From Fidelibacterota bacterium (GTDB lineage Bacteria > Fidelibacterota > UBA2242): a DNA stretch of 32,199 bases. Made by a program: the position numbers and the translations under genes. The notes beneath the pieces are model-generated. The model was not told where the DNA came from, ran no database searches, and saw only the letters and a program-made list of their open reading frames with translations. Shown here in pieces: positions 5,692 to 32,199 of the stretch. Numbering within the stretch: the stretch's first letter is position 1; each line of letters opens with the position of its first letter. The stretch covers positions 1 to 32,199 of the forward strand of contig DPVY01000086.1 in the NCBI GenBank assembly GCA_003527965.1, read 5' to 3'.

Positions 5692-5776
5692 TGGGCAGAG
5701 CGGGACTCGAACCCGCACTCCTTTATCAGGAACTAGGTCCTAAGCCTAGCGTGTATACCAATTTCACCACTCTGGC
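5692..5776 (-). tRNA. tRNA-Leu (anticodon TAG), class II with long variable arm; acceptor stem pairs poorly by hand
   Basis: Minus strand reads GCCAGAG TG GTGAAATTGGTATACAC G CTAGG CTTAGGA CCTAG TTCCTGATAAAGGAGT GCGGG TTCGAGT CCCGC TCTGCCC A. The D, anticodon, variable and T arms are canonical. The 5' GCCAGAG and 3' TCTGCCC strands do not pair well (see findings). Confidence 0.75.
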
Positions 5777-5780
5777 AAAT

Positions 5781-5843
5781 AGCGCCGGCGGGCAGGTCTG
5801 CTCCCAAGGGGATCTCCGTTGAGACAATTCCGCCACCGCGGCT
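5781..5843 (-). other. GC-rich structured spacer carrying an 18-nt mimic of a class-II tRNA 5' half
   Basis: Minus strand 5842 to 5825 reads GCCGCGGTGGCGGAATTG (acceptor strand + TG + D-arm pattern). It is followed by small hairpins UCUC-AACG-GAGA and UCCC-CUU-GGGA and closed by GGCGG/CCGCC pairing. A T7 run on the minus strand precedes it (5844-5850). Confidence 0.4.
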
Positions 5844-6034
5844 AAAAAAACACTTTAATTTAAAAAATCTATCCAATTTTCAAAGCGCTGTTACATCGAT
5901 TCTTCTATATGTAAAACATGCGTTACAAATTACTTTATCTACTTCAGGTGAACCATTTTAACCGTCTTGATAAAATCCCCGATTCCGCAGGATTGCCTTC
6001 CTGATCACGCTCCCTAAATAATATTTGGCTGATC

Positions 6035-9000
6035 TTAAGCTTCGGCGCCATGACATTTTTTGTATTTTTTGCCACTACCACAGGGGCAGGGATCATTTCG
6101 CCCTATTTTAGGATCGACGTGGATAGGTTTGAGTTTACGAGGTCGGTTGTCGCCGGTCGATTGTTCCTGTGCTGACGGAGCCAGCCCCATACCTAATGAA
6201 TCCTGGTGAATCATTTGAACGGGCAATGCCCGACGCAGTCCGTGAGGCTCCGGTTGCGCACCTCTTATCTGTGCTCTGAAACAGATCTTCAGGGTCTGTT
6301 TGTTTATTTCATCTATCACGTTAACAAAGGCTTTATATGCTTCGCTTTTATACTCTAGCAGGGGATCTTTTTGTCCGTAGGCGCGCCAGTTAATCCCCTC
6401 TTTTAACTGATCCATGGCATAAAGATGATCCCGCCACTTTTCATCTATTGTCCGCAGGGTAACAAATTTTTCAAGGTAGCGAATTTGTTCTTCGCCGAAA
6501 TATTGTTCTCGACGATTGTAATAATCAACTGCCCGATCAATGATAACCTGCCGGACATTCTCTTCTGAGGCATCGGATAATTCCTGAAGACGAATGTCAA
6601 TACCCAGCGTGTTATTCAGTTCGCTCCGCAGTCCTTCCCAATCCCACTCCTCCGGCAATAGTTTTGGATCGGTGTACTCCTCAACTAACTCACCGGACCA
6701 ATCTTCCAAAATTTCAAGAATCTCTTCCTTGATATTCTCTTCCTTCAGGGAATAATTACGGCGGTCATAAATGATCTCCCGCTGCTGGCTCATCACATCG
6801 TCATACTCAAGCAGATGTTTCCGGATACTGAAGTTCCGACCTTCGACTTTCTTCTGCGCCCGTTCTATCGACCGCGTTACCATGGGATGAGTAATCACCT
6901 GCCCCTCTTCGATCCCCATGCGGTCCATTATAGACGCAATTCGTTCAGAATTAAAGAGGCGCATTAAGTCATCTTCGAGAGACAGGAAAAACCGGGATGC
7001 TCCGGGATCGCCCTGCCGTCCGCTGCGACCGCGCAGCTGGAGATCAATCCGGCGAGATTCATGCCGCTCGGTTCCAATGATATATAAACCACCCAGCTCT
7101 TTCACGCCCTGTCCGAGTTTAATATCAGTCCCGCGACCGGCCATATTAGTTGCAATTGTTAGTGCCTGTTTTTCACCGGCACGGGCAACAATCTCCGCTT
7201 CCCGCTGGTGTTGTTTGGCATTCAATACATTATGAGTGATGCTGCGCCGCTTCAGCATCCGACTGATTGTTTCGGAAACTTCAACGCTAACCGTGCCCAC
7301 AAGAACCGGCTGACCATGGTGGTAGGCATCTTCAATTTCATTTAGGATCGCGTTATATTTTTCGCGTCGTGTTTTATAAACCTGATCCTCGTGATCATCA
7401 CGAATACAGGGTTCATTTGTTGGAATAACAACCACGCCGAGTTTATAAATATCATCAAATTCGGCTGATTCCGTCTCGGCGGTACCGGTCATACCGGCCA
7501 GTTTATCGTACATACGGAAGTAATTCTGAATAGTAATCGTGGCAAAGGTCTGGGTTTCCGCCTCAACTTTAACCTTTTCCTTAGCCTCAATAGCCTGATG
7601 AAGCCCGTCACTATAGCGGCGCCCCGGCAATATCCTGCCGGTAAACTCATCGACGATTAAAACCTTACCACCCTGAACAACATATTCTACGTCTTTTTCA
7701 TATAAAACGTGTGCCCGCAATAACTGGGCAATATTATGAAAACGGTCCGATATTTCCGAATGAACTACATCCAGCTCCATTTTCCTTTTCTCTTTTTCGG
7801 CGTCGCTTAAAGATATATCTTCATCTATTGTAACAAATTCTTCCGCCAGATCGGGGACCACCAGATCATTCACCGGAACACCCAGCAAGACTGCAAGTTT
7901 CTCTTCGCCTCGCGGCGTCAAGGTGATATTATGCTGCTTTTCTTCAATATAATAATACAAATCCTCAAAAAACTCATCCTGACTGATAGATGTTCCTGCT
8001 TTGGCATTGGTAAGCAACAGAAACTCTCTTTCACCGGATTGTAAGAGTCGCTGATAGGCGGCATCTTCCAGCAATTTCCGCAGCCGTCTGTTTTTCGGCA
8101 TGCCCTGGGAAGCGATATATAGTTTACGGGCGCTTTCTTCAGAGTTTTTGATTTCCTCAAAATTATCAGGCAATTGCGATAATATTTCGGTGACTTTGTC
8201 ACGCTGCAAACGAACCAGGGTGGCAATTGCAGGGTTTAATTTATCGTACTTCTCATGCCCTGAACTGGATACAGGACCGGAAATAATTAATGGCGTCCGG
8301 GCTTCATCTATTAAAATATTATCAACTTCATCTACGATACAATAATAATATTCCCGTTGAACCTGATCTTCAGCAGCAATCGCCATATTATCCCGCAGAT
8401 AGTCAAAGCCGAATTCATTGTTTGTACCATAGGTTATATCCATATTGTACATTTCTTTTCGTTCCCGACTATCCATGCTATTCAGGATACAACCAACCGT
8501 CAGCCCCAGCTCGGTATAAATCCGCCCCATCCATTGGCTGTCACGCTGCGCCAGATAATCGTTCACTGTAACGAGGTGGACGCCCCTGCCGGTCAGGGCA
8601 TTCAAATATACGGGTAATGTTGCTACCAGGGTTTTACCTTCACCGGTTTTCATCTCGGCAATTTTTCCCTGGTGTAATACAACGCCGCCAATGAGCTGAA
8701 CATCGTAAGGAATCATTTCCCATAGAGTTTTCTGACCTGCCACAGTCCATTCCTGACCTACCAATCGCCGGCAGACCTCTTTGACCATAGCAAAAGCTTC
8801 CGGCAGAATCTCATCCAACATCTCCTGTTCGGCTTTAATGACCGCTTTGTGCTTTTCAGCCCGAGTCATATTCGAATTTTCGAGATCTGCCTCTCTGCCC
8901 TTGCGAACCTCCTGCAGCATGGCTTTAAATTCATCCGTCCGTTGACGTAGCTTTTCTATCGGGACATCTTCCAAAGAAGCATATATACCGTTAATCTCTG

Positions 9001-9079
9001 CGACCAGAGGCATAATTTTTTTTATTTCTCTTCCTGAAGCAGTGCCAAATATTGATGTTAAGAACGATCCGATACTCAT
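6035..9079 (-). CDS. secA: preprotein translocase ATPase SecA
   Basis: 1014 aa. Motor motifs MKTGEGKTL and DEVD, and the C-terminal zinc-binding tail [14 protein letters not shown]. Confidence 0.97.
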
Positions 9080-9216
9080 AATTTTCCAGGGTTTAGATTA
9101 TGTTCAAAATCATTGTTTTATGATCTCATTTACAAAACAATTAAAGATTCACCAAAAATCCCTCACCATTCAGCCGGACTTGGTTTTTGGGCAATGGAAT
9201 GATCAATTTAATTCTA

Positions 9217-9642
9217 TTACTTATCGGGTTTTTTTTCCATTATTAAGTGCAGGACAGCATCCAGAATACCATTTACAAATGCGCTGCTGTCATCGGTGGA
9301 ATATTTTTTGGCAATCTCAATTGCCTCGGAAATCGACACCTTTGGCGGAATATCTTCAAAATACAAAAATTCACTGATCGCCATCCTAATAATCAATCGG
9401 TCAATAATGGCAATCCGATCGAAATCCCAATTTTCCGATTTGGCTTTTATATAGTCGTCTAACTCTTTTTTATGAAGTGTCGCCGATTTAAAGATTTCAC
9501 CGGCAAAGGATTTTAAATCGTCAGAAAGTTCTTCAGATTTATCAATTATATCGGCTGCAACGGTTTTAATATTATCGCCGGATAGTTCCTGGGCATATAT
9601 AGCCTGCAGGGCTACTTCACGTGCGAGTCGTCTTTCTCTCAT
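9217..9642 (-). CDS. nusB: transcription antitermination factor NusB
   Basis: About 141 aa with the typical N-terminus RRLAREVALQAIYA. I prefer the ATG at 9640-9642 over the upstream TTG used by the ORF track. Confidence 0.85.
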   Translation of the reverse strand: MRERRLAREVALQAIYAQELSGDNIKTVAADIIDKSEELSDDLKSFAGEIFKSATLHKKELDDYIKAKSENWDFDRIAIIDRLIIRMAISEFLYFEDIPPKVSISEAIEIAKKYSTDDSSAFVNGILDAVLHLIMEKKPDK

Positions 9643-9874
9643 TTTCAACAAACCTTTTACAATAACAAAAAACTTCCATGCTAATTTACATCTTTTTTTT
9701 CATCTAAGACACAATTAAATCAGGAATAATTAAAACCCGAGGGGTTTTGAGCATAAATCTCCATTAATTTTTTCAAAATTTTCTATCTATAGTTGTAAAA
9801 TTGTTTAAATTTCCGGTCGTACGATCTTTAAATTCATAGGGAGAACTAACTAACTAAAATTAAAAGGAGAATTC

Positions 9875-10675
9875 ATGAACTTCTATCGCCGTACATCTAA
9901 AGGATTGAAGATAACTGAATCCGTAAAGGATATCTTTTCCACCTGGAAAGATGGAGAAAAATGGCTGTTCATCGGACCCCATGATGACGATATTTTACTA
10001 GGTTCCGGTCTGTTACTCCAGGCAGCTTTAAAATCCGGCATTGATGTGTATGCGCTCATTGCGACAGATGGTCGGATGGGATATTGCACACCGGACCAGG
10101 AAAAAACCATTAGCGAAATCCGCAAAGCGGAAACCAAAGAAGCCTTCAAAATCATTGGCATGCCACTGGAAAAAGTCTTTTTCGCCGATTTTCCAGATTG
10201 TGATACCGGTTCATATCTGGGACGCCGTAAAGCCAAAGAAGGCGATCCCGACATTAAAGGCTATACGGGCTTGCAAAATGCCTTTACATATTATCTGCGA
10301 AAAGTACGTCCGGGGCGAGTTTTTCTGCCTACCGGCTCCGACCTGCATACCGACCATAAACTGGTTTACCAGGAACTCCTGATTTCCCTTTTTCATGCCG
10401 GTGGCGATATCTGGCCGGAACTGGGTGAAGCCCTGACATGGACACCCTGGCCTTACGAATTTTCGGTTTATTGCGATTTCCCAAGTGCTCCCAAGATCAA
10501 GGTAATGGCGGATGATGATATTTTTCAGAAAAAACTGGCTTGCGTTCAGGCCTATAAATCACAACGGCAGATTGCCTCGTTGGTTGAAACGCTGAAAGCC
10601 GGCGGTCCGATTGAATATTACCGCCCCGCAGACATCGCGTTTTATCATCCTGAAAATCACATCGCGTTGTTTTAA
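9875..10675 (+). CDS. PIG-L/LmbE-family N-acetylglucosaminyl deacetylase
   Basis: 266 aa. Family signatures GPHDDD (variant of AHPDD) and HTDH (HxDH). RBS AAGGAG lies 5 nt upstream of the ATG. Confidence 0.75.
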   Translation: MNFYRRTSKGLKITESVKDIFSTWKDGEKWLFIGPHDDDILLGSGLLLQAALKSGIDVYALIATDGRMGYCTPDQEKTISEIRKAETKEAFKIIGMPLEKVFFADFPDCDTGSYLGRRKAKEGDPDIKGYTGLQNAFTYYLRKVRPGRVFLPTGSDLHTDHKLVYQELLISLFHAGGDIWPELGEALTWTPWPYEFSVYCDFPSAPKIKVMADDDIFQKKLACVQAYKSQRQIASLVETLKAGGPIEYYRPADIAFYHPENHIALF

Positions 10676-10698
10676 TTTATCATAAAGGGATTCAGGCG

Positions 10699-11484
10699 AT
10701 GAATCAGACAGCCCAATTGCGTCATTTCTCTCAATCTCAAAAAGAGAGGCGGATTCTGTTTTGCGGTGACGACGATCTGGACCGCGCAGCGGTGTATCTT
10801 GCTGCCATTTTGGATGAACAGAATTACGCTTTTGACTATATACCTTCAGCTCTGAAATTCCCCGATGACCTGCAATTACATCGGTACCGGCTTGTTATTC
10901 TCAGCGATTATCCGCGGATAAACATTTCTGATCACCAGCTGACATTAATTGAGCAGTTCGTTCGGTATGGCGGTCATATTCTGATGATCGGCGGCTGGGA
11001 ATCCTTCACCGGTCTGCAAAATGAATACAACGGCACAATTCTGCGCAATGTGCTGCCGGTCGAAATGCTGGCATCCGATGATCGGGTCAATCTGTCACAG
11101 GGTTGCGTCGTTCTACCCTCGGCAGATCAGCATCCCGTGATTGAGAATATTGACTGGAATCGTCCCGGAATCATCGGGGGATACAATCGGCTCATTCCCA
11201 AAAACGGTTCGGCTATTATATTAAAAGGAAAACATCTGTCAATTACAGCCGGAAACCATCCCCAGGTCACTGTAAATAAAGATGAAATTCCGCTGCTGGT
11301 TGAAGGTTCTTATCATAACGGGAAAACCGGAGCCTTAGCCTTTGACCTGGCGCCACACTGGATCGGGGGACTGGTTGATTGGGGGGATCAGCGCAAACGG
11401 ATCGACTTCAATGATACATTCATCGAAGTCGGCTATTTTTATTATCGTCTTGTATCCAATCTGATTGCATATTTCTATAATTAG
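10699..11484 (+). CDS. class-I glutamine-amidotransferase-like (ThuA/DUF1355-like) protein, function unknown
   Basis: 261 aa. The pattern LVILSDYP...GGHILMIGGWESFTG resembles non-catalytic GATase1-like folds. The assignment is from memory only. Confidence 0.4.
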   Translation: MNQTAQLRHFSQSQKERRILFCGDDDLDRAAVYLAAILDEQNYAFDYIPSALKFPDDLQLHRYRLVILSDYPRINISDHQLTLIEQFVRYGGHILMIGGWESFTGLQNEYNGTILRNVLPVEMLASDDRVNLSQGCVVLPSADQHPVIENIDWNRPGIIGGYNRLIPKNGSAIILKGKHLSITAGNHPQVTVNKDEIPLLVEGSYHNGKTGALAFDLAPHWIGGLVDWGDQRKRIDFNDTFIEVGYFYYRLVSNLIAYFYN

Positions 11485-22786: not shown

Positions 22787-22861
22787 CGGGGCATAGCGCA
22801 GCCCGGTTAGCGCGCCTGCTTTGGGAGCAGGAAGTCGCAGGTTCAAATCCTGCTGCCCCGA
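22787..22861 (+). tRNA. tRNA-Pro (anticodon TGG)
   Basis: CGGGGCA...TGCCCCG acceptor, D arm GCGC-AGCCCGGTTA-GCGC, anticodon arm CCTGC-TTTGGGA-GCAGG, T arm GCAGG-TTCAAAT-CCTGC. Confidence 0.93.
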
Positions 22862-22945
22862 CATCCTTAAAGATTCTTTACAATCTGATAATCCCTTTTT
22901 CCACACACCACAACTATTCTGGAAACCGGAAAGATTTTTCAAAAC

Positions 22946-23018
22946 GCCCCGATAGCTCAAAGGATAGAGCATCTGCCTTCTAAGCAGAGGGTTGCAGGTT
23001 CGAGTCCTGCTCGGGGTA
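22946..23018 (+). tRNA. tRNA-Arg (anticodon TCT)
   Basis: GCCCCGA...TCGGGGT acceptor (G1:U72 wobble), anticodon arm TCTGC-CTTCTAA-GCAGA, T arm GCAGG-TTCGAGT-CCTGC. Confidence 0.93.
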
Positions 23019-23145
23019 CACCCCATAACACACTGACTATCAACAATATACAGCAATGTCGCAAATGGCTAATTAGGTCATTTTGGGCAAAATACGGTTG
23101 CCAAATGATGCCATTTCGTGCCATCCTTCTCCGTCGAGAGGGGTG

Positions 23146-23248
23146 AGTTGCCCCACTGAGTTGCCCCAGTAAGTTGCCCCACCCCCTTGGGCCGTTTCTC
23201 GACGAGTGTTTTAGCATGAGTTAATCACAGAAATCAACAGTTGCCCCA
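23146..23248. repeat. four copies of the decamer AGTTGCCCCA, three of them phased at 13 nt
   Basis: Exact copies at 23146, 23159, 23172 and 23239, lying between tRNA-Arg and the integrase remnant and extending into its 3' end. Confidence 0.85.
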
Positions 23249-23538
23249 TCTGGAGCATTCTTTACGGGTCCAAAGTCTCTTTCCAGCTGAGCATTATCGA
23301 ATTCAGCATAGATCTGAGTCGTAGTAACCTTTGAATGTCCCAGCAGTTTCGAAACCCTGTAGATGTCCTTTGTTTCGTAGTATGTTTTTACTGCAAACGT
23401 ATGACGCAAGCAGTGGAAGGATCGTTTGTCGCCACTCGGCAAATGGTACAGGCCAGCATTGACAAGTATTTCTTTAAACATCTTACTCAAAGTCCCATCA
23501 ATATGTTTGCCCTGCTTACAGAGGGTGTATATATTATG
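23221..23538 (-). pseudogene. tyrosine recombinase/integrase, C-terminal fragment only
   Basis: Contains HCLRHTF (HxxR), LLGHSKVTTTQIY (His and catalytic Tyr). The open frame stops about 105 codons upstream at an in-frame TAG (23539-23541), so the N-terminal core-binding domain and the first catalytic Arg are missing. Confidence 0.8.
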
Positions 23539-23803
23539 CTATATGTACATTATAAATAACGAGTTATAGTGTTTAACAGTTAGTAATCTTATTTAATATA
23601 TGCAATATCTGCTCTTCTATCATTTTCATTTGCTTATTTTACCCACAAGTATTAAAATGCATTACTTGTAAACGGTTATGAATGGATACAGATAAAAGTG
23701 AGACCTGTATATGACGCCTGAAGAACCGGCACTTCAACATATTGACCAACAATTAATGCAATCGGGCTGAATCCCGTTTGCATCTACTTTATAAGAGAGA
23801 AGA

Positions 23804-25358
23804 ATGGCAAATAATACAAGTAACGGAGCTAACCTCGGCTTTGAAAACAAGCTCTGGGGAATGGCAGACAAGATGCGGGGGCACATGGACTCCGGCGAAT
23901 ATAAGCACGTTGTCCTCGGCCTGATATTCCTCAAATATATATCCGATGCGTTTCAGGCTAAGTACGATAATCTGGCTGCCCGGCAGGTAACCGATTACAC
24001 CGATCCCGAAGACCGTGACGAGTACTCAGCCGCTAATATCTTCTGGGTACCGAAGGAAGCCCGCTGGGAGAAGTTGCGCGCCGGGGCCAAGCAGCCTATC
24101 ATCGGGCAGCTGGTGGATGACGCCATGGTCGCCATCGAAAAGGAGAATCCCAGTCTAAAGGGCGTTTTGCCCAAAACATACTCCCGCCCGGCGCTCGACA
24201 AATACCGCCTGGGACAGCTGATTGACATTACCAGCAATATCGGGCTTGGGGATAAGCACTCCCGCTCTAAGGACATCCTTGGTCGGGTCTATGAGTACTT
24301 CCTTGGTCGCTTTGCTGCGGCTGAAGGTAAAGGCGGCGGCGAATTCTACACCCCTCAGTGTATTGTTAAACTGCTGGTCACTATGATCGAACCATTCAAG
24401 GGTCGGATCTATGATCCCTGCTGTGGTTCCGGCGGAATGTTCGTTCAGTCTGAACGTTTTATGGAAGAACATGGCGGGCGGCTGGGCGATATTGCGGTGT
24501 ACGGTCAGGAATCAAATCCCACCACCTGGAAGCTGGCGAAGATGAACCTTGCCATCCGGGGTATTGATACCGATCTTGGTCAGTATCAGGCCGACAGCTT
24601 TCACAACGACCTGCATAAAGACCTCAAGGCGGATTTTATATTGGCGAATCCTCCCTTCAATATGTCTGACTGGGGCGGTGAACGGCTGAAAGAGGACGTG
24701 CGCTGGAAGTATGGCGTACCGCCGGTGAACAATGCCAACTACGCTTGGATTTCCCACTTTATTCACCATCTGGCACCCAATGGCATTGCCGGCTTTGTGC
24801 TGGCAAATGGTTCCATGTCAACCAATACATCCAGTGAAGGCGAAATCCGAAAAACAATCATCGAAGCCGATATGGTGGATTGTATGATCGCATTGCCGGG
24901 ACAGCTATTTTATACAACTCAGATTCCGGTCTGCCTGTGGTTTGTGACCAAGTCCAAGAAAGCTGAACCCCGACGCGGCTACCGTGACCGCTCCGGTGAA
25001 ACGCTCTTCATCGATGCCCGTAAAATGGGCAAACTCATCGACCGGGTGCATCGCGAACTTGACGCTGACGATGTCGCCACGATTGCCGGCACCCTATCAC
25101 CAGTGGCGGAATGCTGACGGTGACTACGAGGACAAACCCGGCTGGTGGAAATCTGCCACGCTGGACGAGATCAGAACGCACGGCTATGTGCTGACACCGG
25201 GGCGCTATGTTGGCGCTGAGGAAGTGGAAGACGACGGCATTCCCTTTGAGGAGAAGATGACGGAACTGTCCGCCACACTGTATAAACAGTTTGCTAAATC
25301 GAAGGAACTGGAAACCACGATTAGGACGAACTTGGAAGTATTAGGGTACGGGGAATGA
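23804..25358 (+). pseudogene. hsdM: Type I R-M methyltransferase subunit HsdM, interrupted by a +1 frameshift near 25092-25094
   Basis: N-terminal HsdM domain ([10 protein letters not shown]), SAM motif [10 protein letters not shown], catalytic NPPF. The frame ends at 25117, and the canonical C-terminus (YHQWRN...YVLTPGRYVGAEE) continues in the next frame to 25358. Confidence 0.88.
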
Positions 25359-26453
25359 ATGATGAGCAAACAAGATATGAACGTTAAGATACCAGCAACA
25401 GCCGGGAATGAATATGCGCTTATGCGGGATATTCGCAAGCTAATTGAAGAAACCCGCTCCACAGTTGCCATAGCTGTCAATGCGGCAATGACTATGCTTT
25501 ACTGGAATATAGGCCGGCGGATTAACACAGACATTTTACAAGGTAAGCGGGCCGATTATGGCAAAGAAATAGTCTCCACACTGTCGAGACAATTGATTCA
25601 GGAATATGGGAACAGTTTTTCCGATAAAAATCTACGGCATATGCTTCGCTTTGCTGAGGCTTTTCCAGACGATAAGATTGTCTACGCACTGAGTAGACAA
25701 TTGAGTTGGACGCACTTTCGGACTGTCATTTACCTTGACGATCCTCTAAAACGGGATTTCTATGCTGAAATGTGCAGATTGGAAAACTGGAGCACACGGA
25801 CGTTGCAAACAAAGATTGATTCCATGCTCTATGAACGGACGGCGCTGTCTAAAAAGCCGGATGATTTGATTAAACATGAGCTGCAACAACTGCGCGATAA
25901 AGATCATCTGACACCGGAACTGGTTTTTAAGGATCCCTATTTCCTCGACTTTCTCGGATTGAATGATCGCTATCTGGAAAGAGACCTCGAAGACGCCATC
26001 CTGCGGGAATTGGAACAGTTTCTTCTGGAACTGGGATATGGCTTTGCGTTTATGGCCAGGCAAAAACGCATTCAAATTGATAACGATGATTATTACATTG
26101 ACCTGCTATTCTATCACCGCAGTTTGAAACGTCTGATTGCCATTGATCTGAAACTCGGCGATTTCAAGGCGGGATACAAAGGGCAAATGGAACTCTATCT
26201 GCGCTGGCTTAATAAACATGAACGGAAACCAATGGAAAATGAACCTCTGGGGATTATCTTATGCGCCGGGAAGAAACAGGAGATGATCGAGCTGCTGGAA
26301 CTGGGTAAATCCGGTATTCATGTTGCCGAATATTTAACAGAACTGCCTCCCCGAGAACTGCTCAGACAGAAGTTGCATAAAGCCCTGATCAGTGCAAAAA
26401 CCAGAATTGCAGCATTGCCGGACAGAACTGATAATAAGGTTGATGATGACTAA
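25359..26453 (+). CDS. yhcG: YhcG/DUF1016-family PDDEXK nuclease-like protein
   Basis: 364 aa. Family blocks LYWNIGRRI, LSWTHFR, FYAEMC..ENWSTRTL, FKDPYFLDFLGL, and the PD-(D/E)xK core FLLELGYGFAFMARQKRI...IDLLFYH...IAIDLKLG. Its ATG immediately follows the hsdM stop. Confidence 0.85.
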   Translation: MMSKQDMNVKIPATAGNEYALMRDIRKLIEETRSTVAIAVNAAMTMLYWNIGRRINTDILQGKRADYGKEIVSTLSRQLIQEYGNSFSDKNLRHMLRFAEAFPDDKIVYALSRQLSWTHFRTVIYLDDPLKRDFYAEMCRLENWSTRTLQTKIDSMLYERTALSKKPDDLIKHELQQLRDKDHLTPELVFKDPYFLDFLGLNDRYLERDLEDAILRELEQFLLELGYGFAFMARQKRIQIDNDDYYIDLLFYHRSLKRLIAIDLKLGDFKAGYKGQMELYLRWLNKHERKPMENEPLGIILCAGKKQEMIELLELGKSGIHVAEYLTELPPRELLRQKLHKALISAKTRIAALPDRTDNKVDDD

Positions 26454-26581
26454 TTGTATAGATTACAGTTTTACTTATACTGTAAAACGGGATTCACTGT
26501 CTCCCGAATTCAACCCTACCGCAATAGTGCGGACACTGTTGACACAATTCAGAAATCAATCACGAAAAGAGGCGCTGAGCA

Positions 26582-27859
26582 ATGGGGAGTGAATCAATAA
26601 CATTTGGAAGTTCCGCTATATTAATAAAAGATATCGTACAACCATCGGATGTAGGTGATTTTCCATATATCGGATTAGAGCATATTGAAGAAAGCGAATT
26701 ACGATTAAGCAGTTACGGAAACGCCAAAGATGTTCAAAGTGCAAAGTTCCGGTTTAATAAAGGGGATATCCTGTTTGGTAAGCTTCGACCTTATTTTAGA
26801 AAGGTAATAAAGGCACCGTTTGATGGTATTTGTTCAACAGATATATGGGTAGTACGTGCTAAAAATGGAATAGATCAGGGTTATTTGTACTATTGGATGG
26901 CATCAGATTCATTTATCGAATATGCTACAAGAGGTTCGGAAGGAACTCGGATGCCGCGAGCAAAATGGGAGCATGTAAGTCGATATACTCAGACAAGATT
27001 ATCTCTCCCCGAACAACGCGCCATCGCCCATATTCTCGGTTCGCTGGACGACAAGATTGAGTTGAACCGGCAGATGAACCGCACTCTGGAAGCCATGGCT
27101 CAGGCGGTTTTCAAAAGCTGGTTTGTGGATTTTGATCCCGTCCATGCCAAAGCAGAGGGTCGGGATACCGGTCTGCCCGCTGAGATTGCCGACCTCTTTC
27201 CCGACAGCTTCATGGATTCGGAGCTAGGAGAGATTCCGAAGGGGTGGAGAATACAGGCAATTAGCGATCTTGCGGATATAGTTGGAGGCAGCACTCCACG
27301 TACAACCGAGCTCAACTACTGGCAAGATGGGGTTCATTCCTGGGCGACACCAAAGGATCTCTCAACATTGTCAGTACCGTTATTGTTAGAAACAGAACGA
27401 CGTATCACCGATGCTGGCCTTGCACAGATCAGTTCTGGGCTGTTACCTGTTGGAACTGTCTTACTTTCATCGAGGGCTCCAATCGGATATTTGGCAATTG
27501 CTGAGATACCCGTGGCAATCAATCAGGGATTCATTGCGATGAAACCCAAAAAGGACATATCAAATCTCTTTGTGCTTTTTTGGACAGCCTTCGCTCATGA
27601 CGATATCCTGAGTCGGGCTAATGGCTCAACCTTCCTTGAGATCAGCAAAACAAACTTTAGACCGATCTCTTTAGTCGCGCCACCATCGATGATTATAAGA
27701 GCATTCGACCAACGAGTTCGTGAAATGTACAATCGGATCGTTGATAATGAGCGTGAATCTCGTACTCTTGTAGCCCTACGTGACACACTGCTACCCAAAC
27801 TCATTTCCGGTGAACTGCGAGTGTTGGGTGTCGGAAATTATTTAAAGGAGGTTGTTTGA
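26582..27859 (+). CDS. hsdS: Type I R-M specificity subunit HsdS
   Basis: 425 aa. Two variable target-recognition domains are separated by the conserved helix [40 protein letters not shown], and the protein ends in [23 protein letters not shown]. Confidence 0.92.
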
Positions 27860-28308
27860 TGGCAAATATTGACCTTACACAGGCAGAAATTGACGCACTA
27901 TTGGCAATGAACAAGATCAAGATCAACAATGACGTTTATGATTATCCTGATCAGGGCGGTTCTTTGAGAATACCACTGACCTCCGAGGATAGGCGGGAGG
28001 AATTTATGCTTGACGTCACACGAGGCAGAATCGAACTTTCAAAGGGAACTTTGCAAAATCGAACGCGACAAGTTATCGTCCTTGTGCGTCTGGATTATGG
28101 AGGTTCGCCACACAGAAATCCAGACGGGGAGGAGATGCCGTGTCCGCATTTACATATTCACCGTGAAGGGTATGGAGATAAATGGGCCGCGCCGGTTCCA
28201 CGTGATAAATTTCCACATATTGGCAATGATTGGGAAACATTGCAGGACTTTATAACGTACTGCAACATTACTGACACGCCGAGCATACAGAAAGGCCTGT
28301 TTACATGA
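27859..28308 (+). CDS. hypothetical protein X (149 aa), translationally coupled to hsdS
   Basis: Its ATG overlaps the hsdS stop (TGATG). No TM or signal sequence. Conserved-looking block [28 protein letters not shown] know no characterised family; from memory it may be a DUF-only family. Confidence 0.7.
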
Positions 28309-29072
28309 TAGACGAAATTAAAAGCTTAGTTGAACAATATGTACTTTGGCTTAAAGAAAAAACCACGTTAAAGCAAGTGGGTGCCAACTGGGTACAAATC
28401 ACCACACCATATTTGGACAGACATAATGATTGCCTCCAAATTTACACTAAAAAGCAAAACGGTGGATATATAATCACTGATGATGGCTACATTATTGACG
28501 ATCTTCTGAACTCCGGCTGTAAGTTGGACAGCCTAAAACGGCAAGAACTGTTAAAAATGACACTTGCGGGTTTTGGCGTGGGGAAAAAGGATAATGCCTT
28601 AGAGATTTACGCAACACGTGAGAACTTCGCATTCAAAAAGCACAATCTTTTACAAGCCATGTTGGCTGTGAACGATTTGTTTTTCTTGGCTTCTCCAATG
28701 GTTGCCAGCTTGTTTTACGAGGATGTTGTGGCATGGCTGGATTTGGTGGACATCCGATATACACCGAAGGTCAAGTTCACTGGAAAAAGTGGGTATGATC
28801 ATATGTTTGACTTTGTGATTCCTAAATCAAAAGCCAAACCGGAAAGGATACTTCAAACAATTAATAGGCCCAATCGTGATACAGCCGAGGCTTTGGCTTT
28901 CAAATGGGTGGACACACGAGAGGTACGCCCTCCGGAATCGAAGGTATACGCTATCTTGAATGATCAGAGTCACCCTGTTCCTCAGGGGGTTATTGACGCA
29001 TTAAAGAATTATGACACCAGCCCAGTGTTATGGAGTGTAAGAGGAGAAGTCCGCGAGGAACTTGCTGCATGA
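28305..29072 (+). CDS. hypothetical protein Y (255 aa), possibly DUF1828+DUF1829 architecture
   Basis: ATGA overlap with X. Blocks [19 protein letters not shown] and [17 protein letters not shown]...ERILQTIN. The family assignment is from memory and unverified. Confidence 0.7.
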
Positions 29073-29170
29073 TCCACCATCTTAATGAAAATATAATCGA
29101 GCAAATGACGCTGGTCTGGTTCAAGAATCTTGGCTATGCCATCGCGTTCGGCCCCGACATCAGCCCGGAC
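29069..29170 (+). pseudogene. hsdR: 5' stub of an hsdR gene (about 34 codons)
   Basis: [34 protein letters not shown] parallels the start of the intact HsdR ([34 protein letters not shown]). Its ATG overlaps the Y stop (ATGA). Similarity is lost after about 29170. Confidence 0.75.
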
Positions 29171-29268
29171 CTGTTTTGGCGGGCTTCGCAAAGGCAAGCA
29201 GGAATCCCAGATGCTGAGAAGTTCATTAAGCCTGCCTATGCGTTACACGCAGACAGGGAGGTCGGCGT

Positions 29269-29529
29269 ATGAACAACGAAATTGTATTCTACAGCACGCC
29301 GAATGGTGATAAGAAAGTCGAGGTATTGTTTCAGGATGAGAATTTTTGGTTGACGCAGAAGGCTATTGCGCGGTTATTTGGGGTTGAAGTGCCCGCCATC
29401 AGCAAGCACCTGAAAAACATCTTTGAATCCGGGGAATTGGTGGCGGATTCAGTTATTTCCATTTTGGAAACAACTCGCCATGAGGGTCGTCGTAGCGTTA
29501 AACACAAGCAAGAGAGTAATGATGAGTAA
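29269..29529 (+). pseudogene. rhuM: RhuM-family protein, N-terminal fragment only
   Basis: [62 protein letters not shown] matches the RhuM N-terminal domain. The ORF ends at 86 aa, whereas by recollection full-length members are several-fold longer. Confidence 0.7.
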
Positions 29530-32199
29530 AACTTCCGAAAACACACTCGAACAAACCGCCCTAATGTGGTTTGAAGACCTCGGCTATACTGTCAGGTTCG
29601 GTCCTGATATTGCCTTTGACGGTCTTCAGCCGGAACGTTCTGCTGAAGCTAATTATACCGATGTCGTTCTTGCGGACAGATTGCGCTCAGCCCTGGAACG
29701 GATCAATCCCGGTCTTCCTACAGACGCTATCGATGATGCTGTCCGTCAGATCAGCCATCCGGAAAGCCCGGCACTGATTATCAACAACCGCCGCTTCCAT
29801 AAAATGCTCACCGATGGCGTTGATACTTCCTGGATGAATCACGATGGGGAGCAAAACGGCAAGGTCTGGCTTTTCGATCTCAAAGATATTGATAATAACG
29901 ATTGGCTGGCGGTCAATCAGTTCACAGTGGTGGAAGACAAGCGGGAACGCCGCCCCGATATAGTAGTTTTTATTAACGGTCTGCCGATTGCCGTCATCGA
30001 GTTAAAGAACCCGGCGGATGAAAAGGCAACTATCAAGCATGCTTTCAATCAACTTCAAACCTATAAATCGCAGATACCGTCACTGTTCGTATATAATGAA
30101 TTACTGATAATTTCCGACGGCTTACAGGCACGGGCGGGCGCTCTGACTTCGGGCTGGGATCGCTTCATGCCCTGGCGCACGATTGACGGAACCGATCTAT
30201 ACCGCGAACCCGGCAACGAGAAACAGACCGATGGGGTGGTGCAGCCCGGATTGGAGACACTCCTCAAAGGCGTCTTCAGTAAACAGTTATTGCTCGATTA
30301 CATTCTTAATTTCATCACCTTTGAAGACGATGGCGGTGATACGACAACCATCGCCAAGAAGGCTGCCGGTTATCATCAGTACCATGCGGTAAACAAAGCT
30401 ATCGAATGTACGCTCTCCGCCTGTGGCATTGACGCGGATAGCAAACAAATCTACGGTCGTTTTCTGGATGCGGAGCGGGTCGATCCTTTTAAGTCGAAAG
30501 AAGATAATCCCAAATGGGGTAAAGGTTCATCCCACTTTGGGGATAAACGGATCGGCGTCATCTGGCATACCCAGGGCTCCGGTAAAAGCCTGTCCATGGC
30601 GTTCTATGCCGGTAAAGTCATTCGTCATCCTGCCATGCAGAATCCTACCGTTCTGGTCATTACCGATCGCAACGATCTGGACGAGCAGTTGTTCGGGACA
30701 TTCTCAGTCAACTACTCTCTATTGAGACAGAAGCCGGTACAGGCGGATAGCAGAGTCAATTTGCGGGAACTGTTGTCTGTGGCATCCGGCGGGGTCGTAT
30801 TCTCTACGATCCAGAAGTTCTTTCCTGACCAGAAAGGTGATGAACATCCGCTTCTGAGCGACCGTCGGAATATTGTAGTGATCGCTGACGAAGCCCATCG
30901 CAGCCAGTACGACTTTATCGATGGTTTTGCCCGTCATCTGCACGACGCCTTGCCCAATGCCTCGTTTATCGGCTTCAGCGGTACGCCCATCGAAAGCCGT
31001 GATAAAAACACACCGGCTGTGTTTGGTGATTATATTGACAAATACGACATCCTTCAGGCTGTGGAAGATGGCGCTACGGTTCGCATCTATTATGAAAGCC
31101 GCTTGGCCAAACTCGAACTGAACGAAAGCGAAAAGCCCAAAATCGATCCGGAATTTGAAGAGATTACCGAAGCCGAAGAAGAAGAAACCCGGAAGCAGCG
31201 ATTACGATCTAAGTGGGCATCGTTGGAAGCTATGGTGGGAACAGAAAAGCGTATCGGATTGGTTGCGGCTGATCTGGTGCAACATTTTGAAGACCGGGAT
31301 GCTGCCATGTCGGGAAAAGCCCTGATCGTCTGTATGAGCCGTCGCATCTGTGTGGACATGTACAACGCTATTATCAAACTGCGCCCCGAATGGCATAGCC
31401 CGGATGACAAAACCGGCGCTGTCAAGATCGTGATGTCCGGTTCGGCGTCTGATGAAATCTCCTGGCAACCTCATATCCGCACCAAAAAAGCCCGGGAAGC
31501 GATTGCGAAACGCTTTAAGGATTACAACGATGATCTGAAACTGGTCATTGTCCGTGATATGTGGCTTACGGGATTCGACTGCCCAAGCATGCACACCATG
31601 TATGTTGATAAACCGATGGCGGGTCATAATCTCATGCAGGCAATCGCCCGCGTCAACAGGGTCTTTCGGGATAAGCAGGGCGGATTGGTTGTCGATTACC
31701 TGGGGCTGGCGGACTCACTGAGAGCGGCGATGCGCACCTACGCTGTTAGTGGTGGTAAAGGCGCTGCCCATGTTGACCAGGAACAAGCGGTGGCGGTCAT
31801 GCTTGAAAAATACCAGGTCGTCAAGGACATGCTCCACGGTTACGATTATATGCCGATATTGAAATCCAGACCGGCAGACCGGATTAAAGGTATCGCAATG
31901 ACTATGGATTTCATACTCGGGCTGGAAGACGGAAAGAAGCGGTTCCTCTATGCCGTATCAGCTCTGTCCAAAGCTTTTGCTCTGTCAGTACCCCATGAAA
32001 AGTCGCTTGAGATACGCGATGAAGTGGGACTATTCCAGGAGATACGCTCCGGACTGGTCAAAGCGACTGTTTCCGAATCCGAACGGTCGCCTGAGGAGAT
32101 AGAATCCGCAATCAAGCAGCTGGTATCCAGGGCGGTTTCATCTACGGAAATCGTTGATATATTCGCAGCCGCCGGATTGAAGGAGCCGGATATATCCAT
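29519..32199 (+). CDS. hsdR: Type I restriction enzyme R subunit HsdR (3' end beyond window)
   Basis: Not in the ORF track because it has no stop in the window. My translation from the ATG at 29519 stays open for about 893 codons. Motifs: PD-(D/E)xK nuclease region [18 protein letters not shown], helicase motif [30 protein letters not shown], then [12 protein letters not shown] and QAIARVNR. Confidence 0.95.

Follow-up and report, generated by a model that had tools for sequence, protein, structure and literature searches.

Two genes, here called X and Y, lie between the specificity gene hsdS and the restriction gene hsdR of a type I restriction-modification (R-M) operon on contig DPVY01000086.1 of a Fidelibacterota bacterium (GenBank assembly GCA_003527965.1), and the question they raise is whether they serve the R-M enzyme or form a module of their own. 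The stretch analyzed, positions 1 to 32,199 of the contig (hereafter, the window), had been described in an earlier note made from its sequence alone; the lengths given there for X, 149 amino acids (aa), and Y, 255 aa, and the motifs quoted from both proteins are all present. Our data show that X-Y is a portable unit that strongly prefers the slot between hsdS and hsdR and is not an integral hsd component, and that the pair is already catalogued as a defense candidate, by the same argument as the note had used. In our estimate, the chances are evenly balanced that X-Y is an autonomous, co-translated two-protein module of the defense type that is transcribed along with the hsd genes and in which Y is the effector and X its sensor or regulator.

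Family membership and co-occurrence of X and Y

A Pfam search identified X as a full-length DUF6978 protein (PF22398, E 1.8e-44), with 151.7 bits against a gathering cut-off of 29.6. The same search found in Y a DUF1828 domain (residues 34-122; 96.7 bits) followed by a DUF1829 domain (residues 160-246; 114.9 bits), both above their gathering scores. This agrees with the note, which had likened X to a DUF-only family and Y to the DUF1828+DUF1829 architecture. When X and the separated domains of Y were searched against Pfam at E <= 10, nothing other than these DUFs was returned, and no NCBIfam model matches X or Y.

The two proteins also match paired models in PADLOC-DB v2, i.e., PDC-M24A for X (PDLC04538, E 4.3e-58, residues 5-148 of 149) and PDC-M24B for Y (PDLC04539, E 1.7e-105, residues 4-255), and their genes have the PDC-M24 layout, being adjacent, on the same strand, and in the order A>>B. 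PDC denotes a phage defense candidate (Payne, Hughes, Fineran & Jackson 2024, bioRxiv 10.1101/2024.01.29.577857). In that work, 145 candidates were curated from genes found within BREX, DISARM, and type I R-M loci. One of the cassettes in Table S8 is CAS_00098 (FAM_00129>>FAM_00065, count 153), which carries the entry "Assign as candidate PDC-M24" and was proposed as a phage defense candidate through "guilt-by-embedding" (10.1101/2024.01.29.577857). The statement in the note that no named defense system contains either protein therefore does not hold. The pair shares with PDC-M24 both families, their order and adjacency, the embedding in type I R-M loci, and full-length matches to the hidden Markov models; judged from its sequence, it is a further instance of this candidate cassette and differs from it in nothing of kind. 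The window adds a new case, found in a genome of the uncultured type, in which relic open reading frames (ORFs) separate Y from hsdR. PDC-M24 itself is a prediction of defense.

Co-occurrence was assessed across 80 reference-genome loci with relatives of Y. An X homologue lies immediately upstream of Y in 71 of these loci (a few of the matches are partial or frameshifted), and the stop codon of X and the start codon of Y share a 4-nucleotide (nt) overlap, ATGA or GTGA, in 61. Since the overlap recurs this often, the arrangement exceeds chance. In addition, X and Y of the window are intact and under purifying selection, with ratios of nonsynonymous to synonymous substitution rates (dN/dS) of 0.07-0.16 for both genes when compared with the two closest loci, L001 and L002. 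Both families are large and well conserved: at 90% identity, Y has matches in more than 6,115 clusters and X in more than 2,021, and the X profile matches 1,358 clusters at 50% identity. Among the top matches listed, which stem from many phyla, X homologues are 60-93% and Y homologues 67-86% identical to the proteins of the window.

Nine of the 80 loci lack an X match, and six of them (L013, L036, L037, L064, L071, and L080) still hold a C-terminal X remnant that reads PPxIxRGLFT, ends in the same ATGA, and is followed by a full-length Y. Y can persist once X is lost. This bears on the possibility that X-Y is a toxin-antitoxin-like addiction module that stabilizes an island, prophage, or plasmid, its effect on phages being incidental. 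Such a module would explain a pair of genes with the small one upstream and a 4-nt overlap, as well as the presence of the cassette on prophages, satellites, and plasmids, and DUF1829 does occur in the non-kinase partner of a toxin-antitoxin-like pair, HipAD/DS-6, a validated two-gene defense system (DefensePredictor, PMC13092281). A toxin should not outlive its antitoxin, however, as Y would have done in the six remnant loci, and X and Y match no known toxin or antitoxin family in Pfam. HipAD/DS-6 is also built differently: its DUF1829 is joined with DUF3037, its partner is a HipA-like kinase, and neither DUF6978 nor DUF1828 is part of it (PMC13092281). We consider an addiction module distinctly unlikely.

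Other arrangements of the two genes were also observed. L052 carries two tandem Y-like ORFs and no X (9169-10765), and in L015, a 594-aa ORF precedes Y and ends in the same ATGA overlap (5758-7554). Among 150 DUF6978 representatives, we found only domain-free N-terminal extensions, one 8xMP match, and one fusion of X to DUF1828; P0292, the single database protein that fuses DUF6978 to DUF1828, may as the sole case be an artefact.

Linkage to hsd operons and portability of the cassette

The cassette shows a very strong enrichment within hsd operons. Genes of the hsd type occur within the available flanks in 58 of the 80 loci, and in 35 of the 48 that are well flanked, i.e., with 5 kb or more of sequence to either side of the cassette. 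In 28 of these 48, the cassette is preceded by hsdS and followed by hsdR, all on one strand. The gap between hsdS and X is at most 8 nt, or the two overlap, in 19 of 52 loci, and in 19 of 48, the hsdR ORF, taken at its maximal length, overlaps the Y stop codon or begins very close to it, both counts being upper bounds because ORF starts were taken maximally. The note had proposed an R-M-linked defense module and a survey of homologue neighborhoods; the survey bears out the co-occurrence of X and Y and their enrichment at hsd genes, and, together with the PADLOC match, leaves the pair strongly tied to type I R-M operons and plausible as a defense module.

The embedding operons are similar to one another, in that 37 of the 39 with a long HsdR match belong to a single hsd lineage, whose HsdR and HsdM proteins are 45-66% and 53-80% identical, respectively, to those of the window. 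Two loci, L044 and L072, carry an unrelated hsd family with the order R-M-S-X-Y. Further cargo in the hsdM-hsdR interval includes YhcG (PDC-S02), RhuM (PDC-S05), SIR2-HerA, and HEC-01/02-like ABC ATPases; in L001, SIR2-like and HerA-like genes lie between hsdS and X (6606-9394), and four cargo modules share one operon.

Such seating could mean that X-Y is an accessory of the type I R-M enzyme, either a PrrC-like guard kept latent by the Hsd complex until a phage anti-restriction protein attacks that complex, or a modulator of restriction. The precise position between hsdS and hsdR in more than half of the well-flanked loci, the roughly one third of S-X and Y-R junctions that overlap or nearly do, and the single hsd lineage all favor this idea, and PrrC, which is almost exclusively embedded in hsd operons, provides a precedent (Payne et al. 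2024, 10.1101/2024.01.29.577857). Like PrrC and RloC, X-Y would be a second-line module inside an hsd operon and co-transcribed with it. Unlike them, it consists of two proteins rather than one, it also occurs without hsd genes, and searches of Pfam and PADLOC found no ABC-ATPase or anticodon-nuclease domain in X or Y.

This occurrence without hsd genes weakens the case for an accessory role. Among the 48 well-flanked loci, 13 lack any hsd gene within 10 kb, and their neighbors are housekeeping genes (phosphoglucomutase, PrfA/PrmC, sigma factors). The X-Y cassette is also found on prophages, satellites, and plasmids, and distant Y homologues (24-34% identity) occur in Firmicutes satellites and temperate phages. 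One such pair, Ljo_0292/Ljo_0291 of Lactobacillus prophage Lj965, is located between the repressor/metalloprotease genes and a superinfection-exclusion gene with the integrase, and in Staphylococcus phage 37, the pair ORF031/ORF014 adjoins the integrase; Pfam confirmed DUF6978 and DUF1828+DUF1829 in the genes of both. No hsd genes are annotated in the stretch shown around these prophage copies. Lysogen-expressed defense genes are typically located between repressor and integrase, and the distant X-Y pairs of Lj965 and phage 37 hold the same position, whereas the copy in the window is chromosomal, within an hsd operon near tRNA genes, and not part of a prophage. The two loci with an unrelated hsd family and a different gene order likewise speak against a dedicated accessory.

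Moreover, the cassette moves independently of the hsd genes around it. Together with a 44-bp hsdS tail (27815-29077), it is 93% identical to L001 at the DNA level, compared with 66-71% for the flanking hsdM and hsdR; upstream of the tail, hsdS aligns in only two short stretches (68-78%). The hsd-free loci, the prophage copies, and these mosaic flanks show that X-Y is portable and not an hsd-specific part, which argues against the claim that the pair was built into the operon rather than inserted as an independent unit. An accessory of the R-M enzyme appears to us about as improbable as an addiction module.

The same mosaicism might instead reflect a mobility or recombination function of X-Y itself, one that inserts cargo cassettes into hsd operons. 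Stubs of the hsdR 5' end adjoin the cassette in the window, L001, L022, L026, L060, and L061, and a Y1-transposase-like gene lies downstream in L001, both of which would agree with such a function. We regard it as very improbable: we found no terminal direct or inverted repeats of the transposon kind around the cassette, Pfam revealed no likeness of X or Y to any transposase or recombinase family, cassettes that probably encode mobilome-associated proteins are reported to have been excluded from the candidates by curation (Payne et al. 2024, 10.1101/2024.01.29.577857), and the prophage copies sit beside a dedicated integrase.

The ORF that opens at the Y stop codon (hsdR') records part of this history. 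The note described it as a stub with an HsdR N-terminus and named the operon hsdS-X-Y-hsdR; the likeness to HsdR extends over only approximately 31-34 codons, the stub is not the hsdR of the operon, and the intact hsdR lies ~450 bp further downstream. In L002, the Y-hsdR junction is intact; the stub shows 78% nt identity to it and likewise to the stub in L001. It is the relic of an older Y-hsdR junction, and we conclude from its identity to the L002 junction that the ancestral order was a tightly coupled hsdS-X-Y-hsdR, behind which rhuM' and a different hsdR were placed in a later event. Fragments of the hsdR 5' end recur beside the cassette (window 29069-29272, L001 9411-9502, and the four other loci named above); they precede X in some loci and follow Y in others. 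The fragments of ~30 codons in the window and in L001 suggest that cargo is exchanged through recombination in a conserved region, the first ~100 nt of hsdR.

RhuM-like sequences near the cassette vary as well. The rhuM' fragment of the window has 91% nt identity to L001 10774-10871, and this counterpart belongs to an ORF (L001 10765-11544) that continues in the same frame into an IS200/Y1-transposase-like protein. In L011, L021, and L043, the ORF immediately before hsdR is a full-length RhuM-like one.

Predicted structures and proposed roles of X and Y

AlphaFold2 (AF2) produced a confident model of X (predicted local distance difference test [pLDDT] score, 89; predicted template modeling score, 0.85), which consists largely of beta strands plus two helices. 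Foldseek searches with this model yielded no significant match in the PDB (best E 0.19; template modeling score [TM] at most 0.27) or in BFVD, where the single borderline match was an uncharacterized siphovirus protein, and sequence and profile searches of the PDB with X returned nothing relevant. From Proteobacteria-type homologues to those of Firmicutes phages, R77, G82, H85, N87, D89, G90, H97, and H99 are invariant. Most of these residues form the cluster H85-x-N87-x-D89-G90...H97-x-H99, whose invariance points to a putative metal-binding or catalytic site. Two familiar readings of the histidines were set aside. The HIT triad, suggested by HLHIH, fails because H101, which would be its third histidine, is a tyrosine in most homologues, and it has no fold match in the PDB; a cupin-type HxH likewise finds no PDB fold match within the limits given above.

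The AF2 model of Y has a pLDDT of 76.5, with a good N-terminal domain. Residues invariant among distant homologues are P35, D38, D42, Y47, D59, R79, K112, Q117, and D124 in the N-terminal domain, and E139, D169, R181, N219, and D220 in the C-terminal domain. The segment 132-175 (window 28698-28829) is strongly conserved yet is the part that AF2 predicted worst; its folding may require contact with X or a ligand. In the C-terminal domain, AF2 placed a helix (139-147), a strand (181-186), a second helix (191-205), and a second strand (213-218), and left residues 148-180 unmodeled, with pLDDT below 50. The sequence of Y would be compatible with the alpha-beta-beta-beta-alpha-beta order of a PD-(D/E)xK core, which AF2 did not model.

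The note had likened DFVIPK in Y to the core of a PD-(D/E)xK nuclease. This likeness is not supported, as K174 is not conserved in the distant ones and no significant nuclease match was obtained by profile or fold. More generally, the catalytic motif D...(D/E)xK is not conserved among Y homologues, and E180 is replaced by T in the Lj965 homologue. Foldseek matches of Y in the PDB to Kpn2I, VC1899/Card1, and the Lassa L endonuclease are weak and not significant, and neither is the best nuclease match (6ekr, E 0.02, TM 0.27). Sequence and profile searches of the PDB with Y gave nothing relevant, and an hhalign comparison with an alignment of the PD-(D/E)xK protein YhcG detected no similarity (probability 0.7%). 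Y resembles Card1, Can2, and VC1899 in having two domains, an N-terminal alpha/beta domain and a C-terminal domain with a putative restriction-endonuclease-like order of elements, and it matches 1xmx and 6xl1 in Foldseek, weakly and not significantly (E at least 0.02, TM below 0.3). It differs from them in having no CARF signature and no conserved catalytic lysine. A nuclease function of Y is a hypothesis that these searches neither confirm nor rule out.

Taken as an autonomous defense-type module, X-Y would be carried as cargo between hsdS and hsdR of a type I R-M operon. It would provide a second line of anti-phage defense or of superinfection exclusion, would be transcribed together with the hsd genes, and would not depend on the R-M enzyme for its action. 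Y would be the effector: its N-terminal DUF1828 domain, with a conserved acidic/aromatic pocket, could serve as a sensor or regulator, and its C-terminal DUF1829 domain, with the invariant residues E139, D169, and R181, may adopt the fold of a restriction endonuclease. X would be a small, beta-rich partner that senses infection or controls Y through its likely metal-binding His/Asn/Asp cluster.

A bolder version, which we consider unlikely, though somewhat less so than the accessory or addiction readings, is that X-Y genuinely protects against phages and does so by a new mechanism. On this view, X would be a metalloprotein of new fold (H85/N87/D89/H97/H99) whose task is to sense infection or to produce or degrade a signal, and Y a new type of sensor joined to a nuclease-like effector. 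The preference for the slot between hsdS and hsdR would then stem from functional communication with the restriction complex, e.g., firing when restriction is blocked.

Several points weigh against the autonomous defense-type module. Guilt-by-embedding is an association only, and our literature searches on the pair and its DUFs found no experimental test. No search gave a significant fold or profile match for X or Y. Residues 132-175 of Y, including the strongly conserved 135-175, have pLDDT values below 50 (34-50), and K174 of DFVIPK is not conserved, being G or A in Firmicutes homologues. In addition, the apparent frameshift in hsdM (see below) means that the host operon may be in decay.

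The hsd locus of the window and the significance of the cassette

The host type I R-M system comprises hsdM, hsdS, and hsdR, all on one strand, and the features of the locus are listed in the table.

Features of the hsd locus in the window, with the matches that identify them
Feature	Position	Strand	Remarks
hsdM, type I methyltransferase	23804..25358	+	Pfam HsdM_N + N6_Mtase; two frames, 23804-25117 + 24984-25358
yhcG/DUF1016 gene, PD-(D/E)xK nuclease family	25359..26453	+	Pfam DUF1016_N + YhcG_C; PADLOC candidate PDC-S02, E 6e-135
hsdS, specificity subunit, 425 aa	26582..27859	+	Pfam Methylase_S, two stretches
Shine-Dalgarno-like AAGGAGG	27845..27851	+	7 nt 5' of X start, within hsdS 3' end
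X, DUF6978 protein, 149 aa, PDC-M24A	27859..28308	+	Pfam E 1.8e-44; PADLOC E 4e-58
Y, DUF1828+DUF1829 protein, 255 aa, PDC-M24B	28305..29072	+	Pfam; PADLOC E 1.7e-105
hsdR' stub	29069..29272	+	HsdR-like for ~31-34 codons, then unrelated sequence; tblastn with L001 HsdR residues 3-33
rhuM' fragment, 86 aa, RhuM-like N-terminal part	29269..29529	+	PADLOC candidate PDC-S05, E 1.6e-31
Intact hsdR, restriction subunit	29519..32199	+	Start 29519/29522; open-ended at window edge; NCBIfam TIGR00348 E 7e-179

All junctions from hsdS to hsdR overlap. The hsdS stop codon (TGA, 27857-27859) and the X start codon (ATG, 27859-27861) overlap as TGATG; the X stop and Y start share ATGA (28305-28308), as do the Y stop and the ATG of the stub (29069-29072), and these three overlaps read as the note had claimed. 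A further ATGA (29269-29272) joins the stub stop to the rhuM' start, and rhuM' overlaps the hsdR start by 11 nt. The hsdR frame shows no stop codon from its start to the end of the window (translation of 29401-32199), and its product is 67% identical in aa sequence to L001 HsdR over 893 aa. A scan for promoters and terminators across 23400-30000 gave counts not above those of shuffled sequences.

The host operon is not wholly intact, as hsdM requires a change of frame near 25080-25093 and hsdR is cut by the window end. L001 HsdM aligns to the window in two tblastn segments, of which the one in frame 2 ends at 25093 and the one in frame 3 begins at 25080, and the switch coincides with the CCC run GGCACCCTATCACC. 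Either this apparent +1 frameshift is genuine and inactivates hsdM, or the assembly is in error here.

Upstream of hsdS, the YhcG/DUF1016 gene starts immediately after the hsdM stop codon, and the same gene (PDC-S02) lies between hsdM and hsdS in L001, L033, and L070. The stretch just upstream of hsdM (window 22787-23490) contains genes for tRNA-Pro and tRNA-Arg and, after them, a minus-strand ORF of 89 aa that, by eye, looks like the C-terminal part of a tyrosine integrase. With these tRNA genes and the integrase-like ORF at its edge, the entire hsd locus looks like a tRNA-linked genomic island.

Regarding what the locus means, the window gives no concept beyond the published guilt-by-embedding prediction. 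It is a clean example of the canonical hsdS-X-Y-hsdR layout, and its hsdR' stub and rhuM' fragment are scars that record the exchange of cargo in the operon slot. The families themselves reach far, with ~1,358 DUF6978 clusters at 50% identity and more than 6,000 clusters of Y relatives at 90%, and both X and Y are without a characterized structural relative. If PDC-M24 were shown to defend, a widespread two-protein system would join the prokaryotic immune repertoire.

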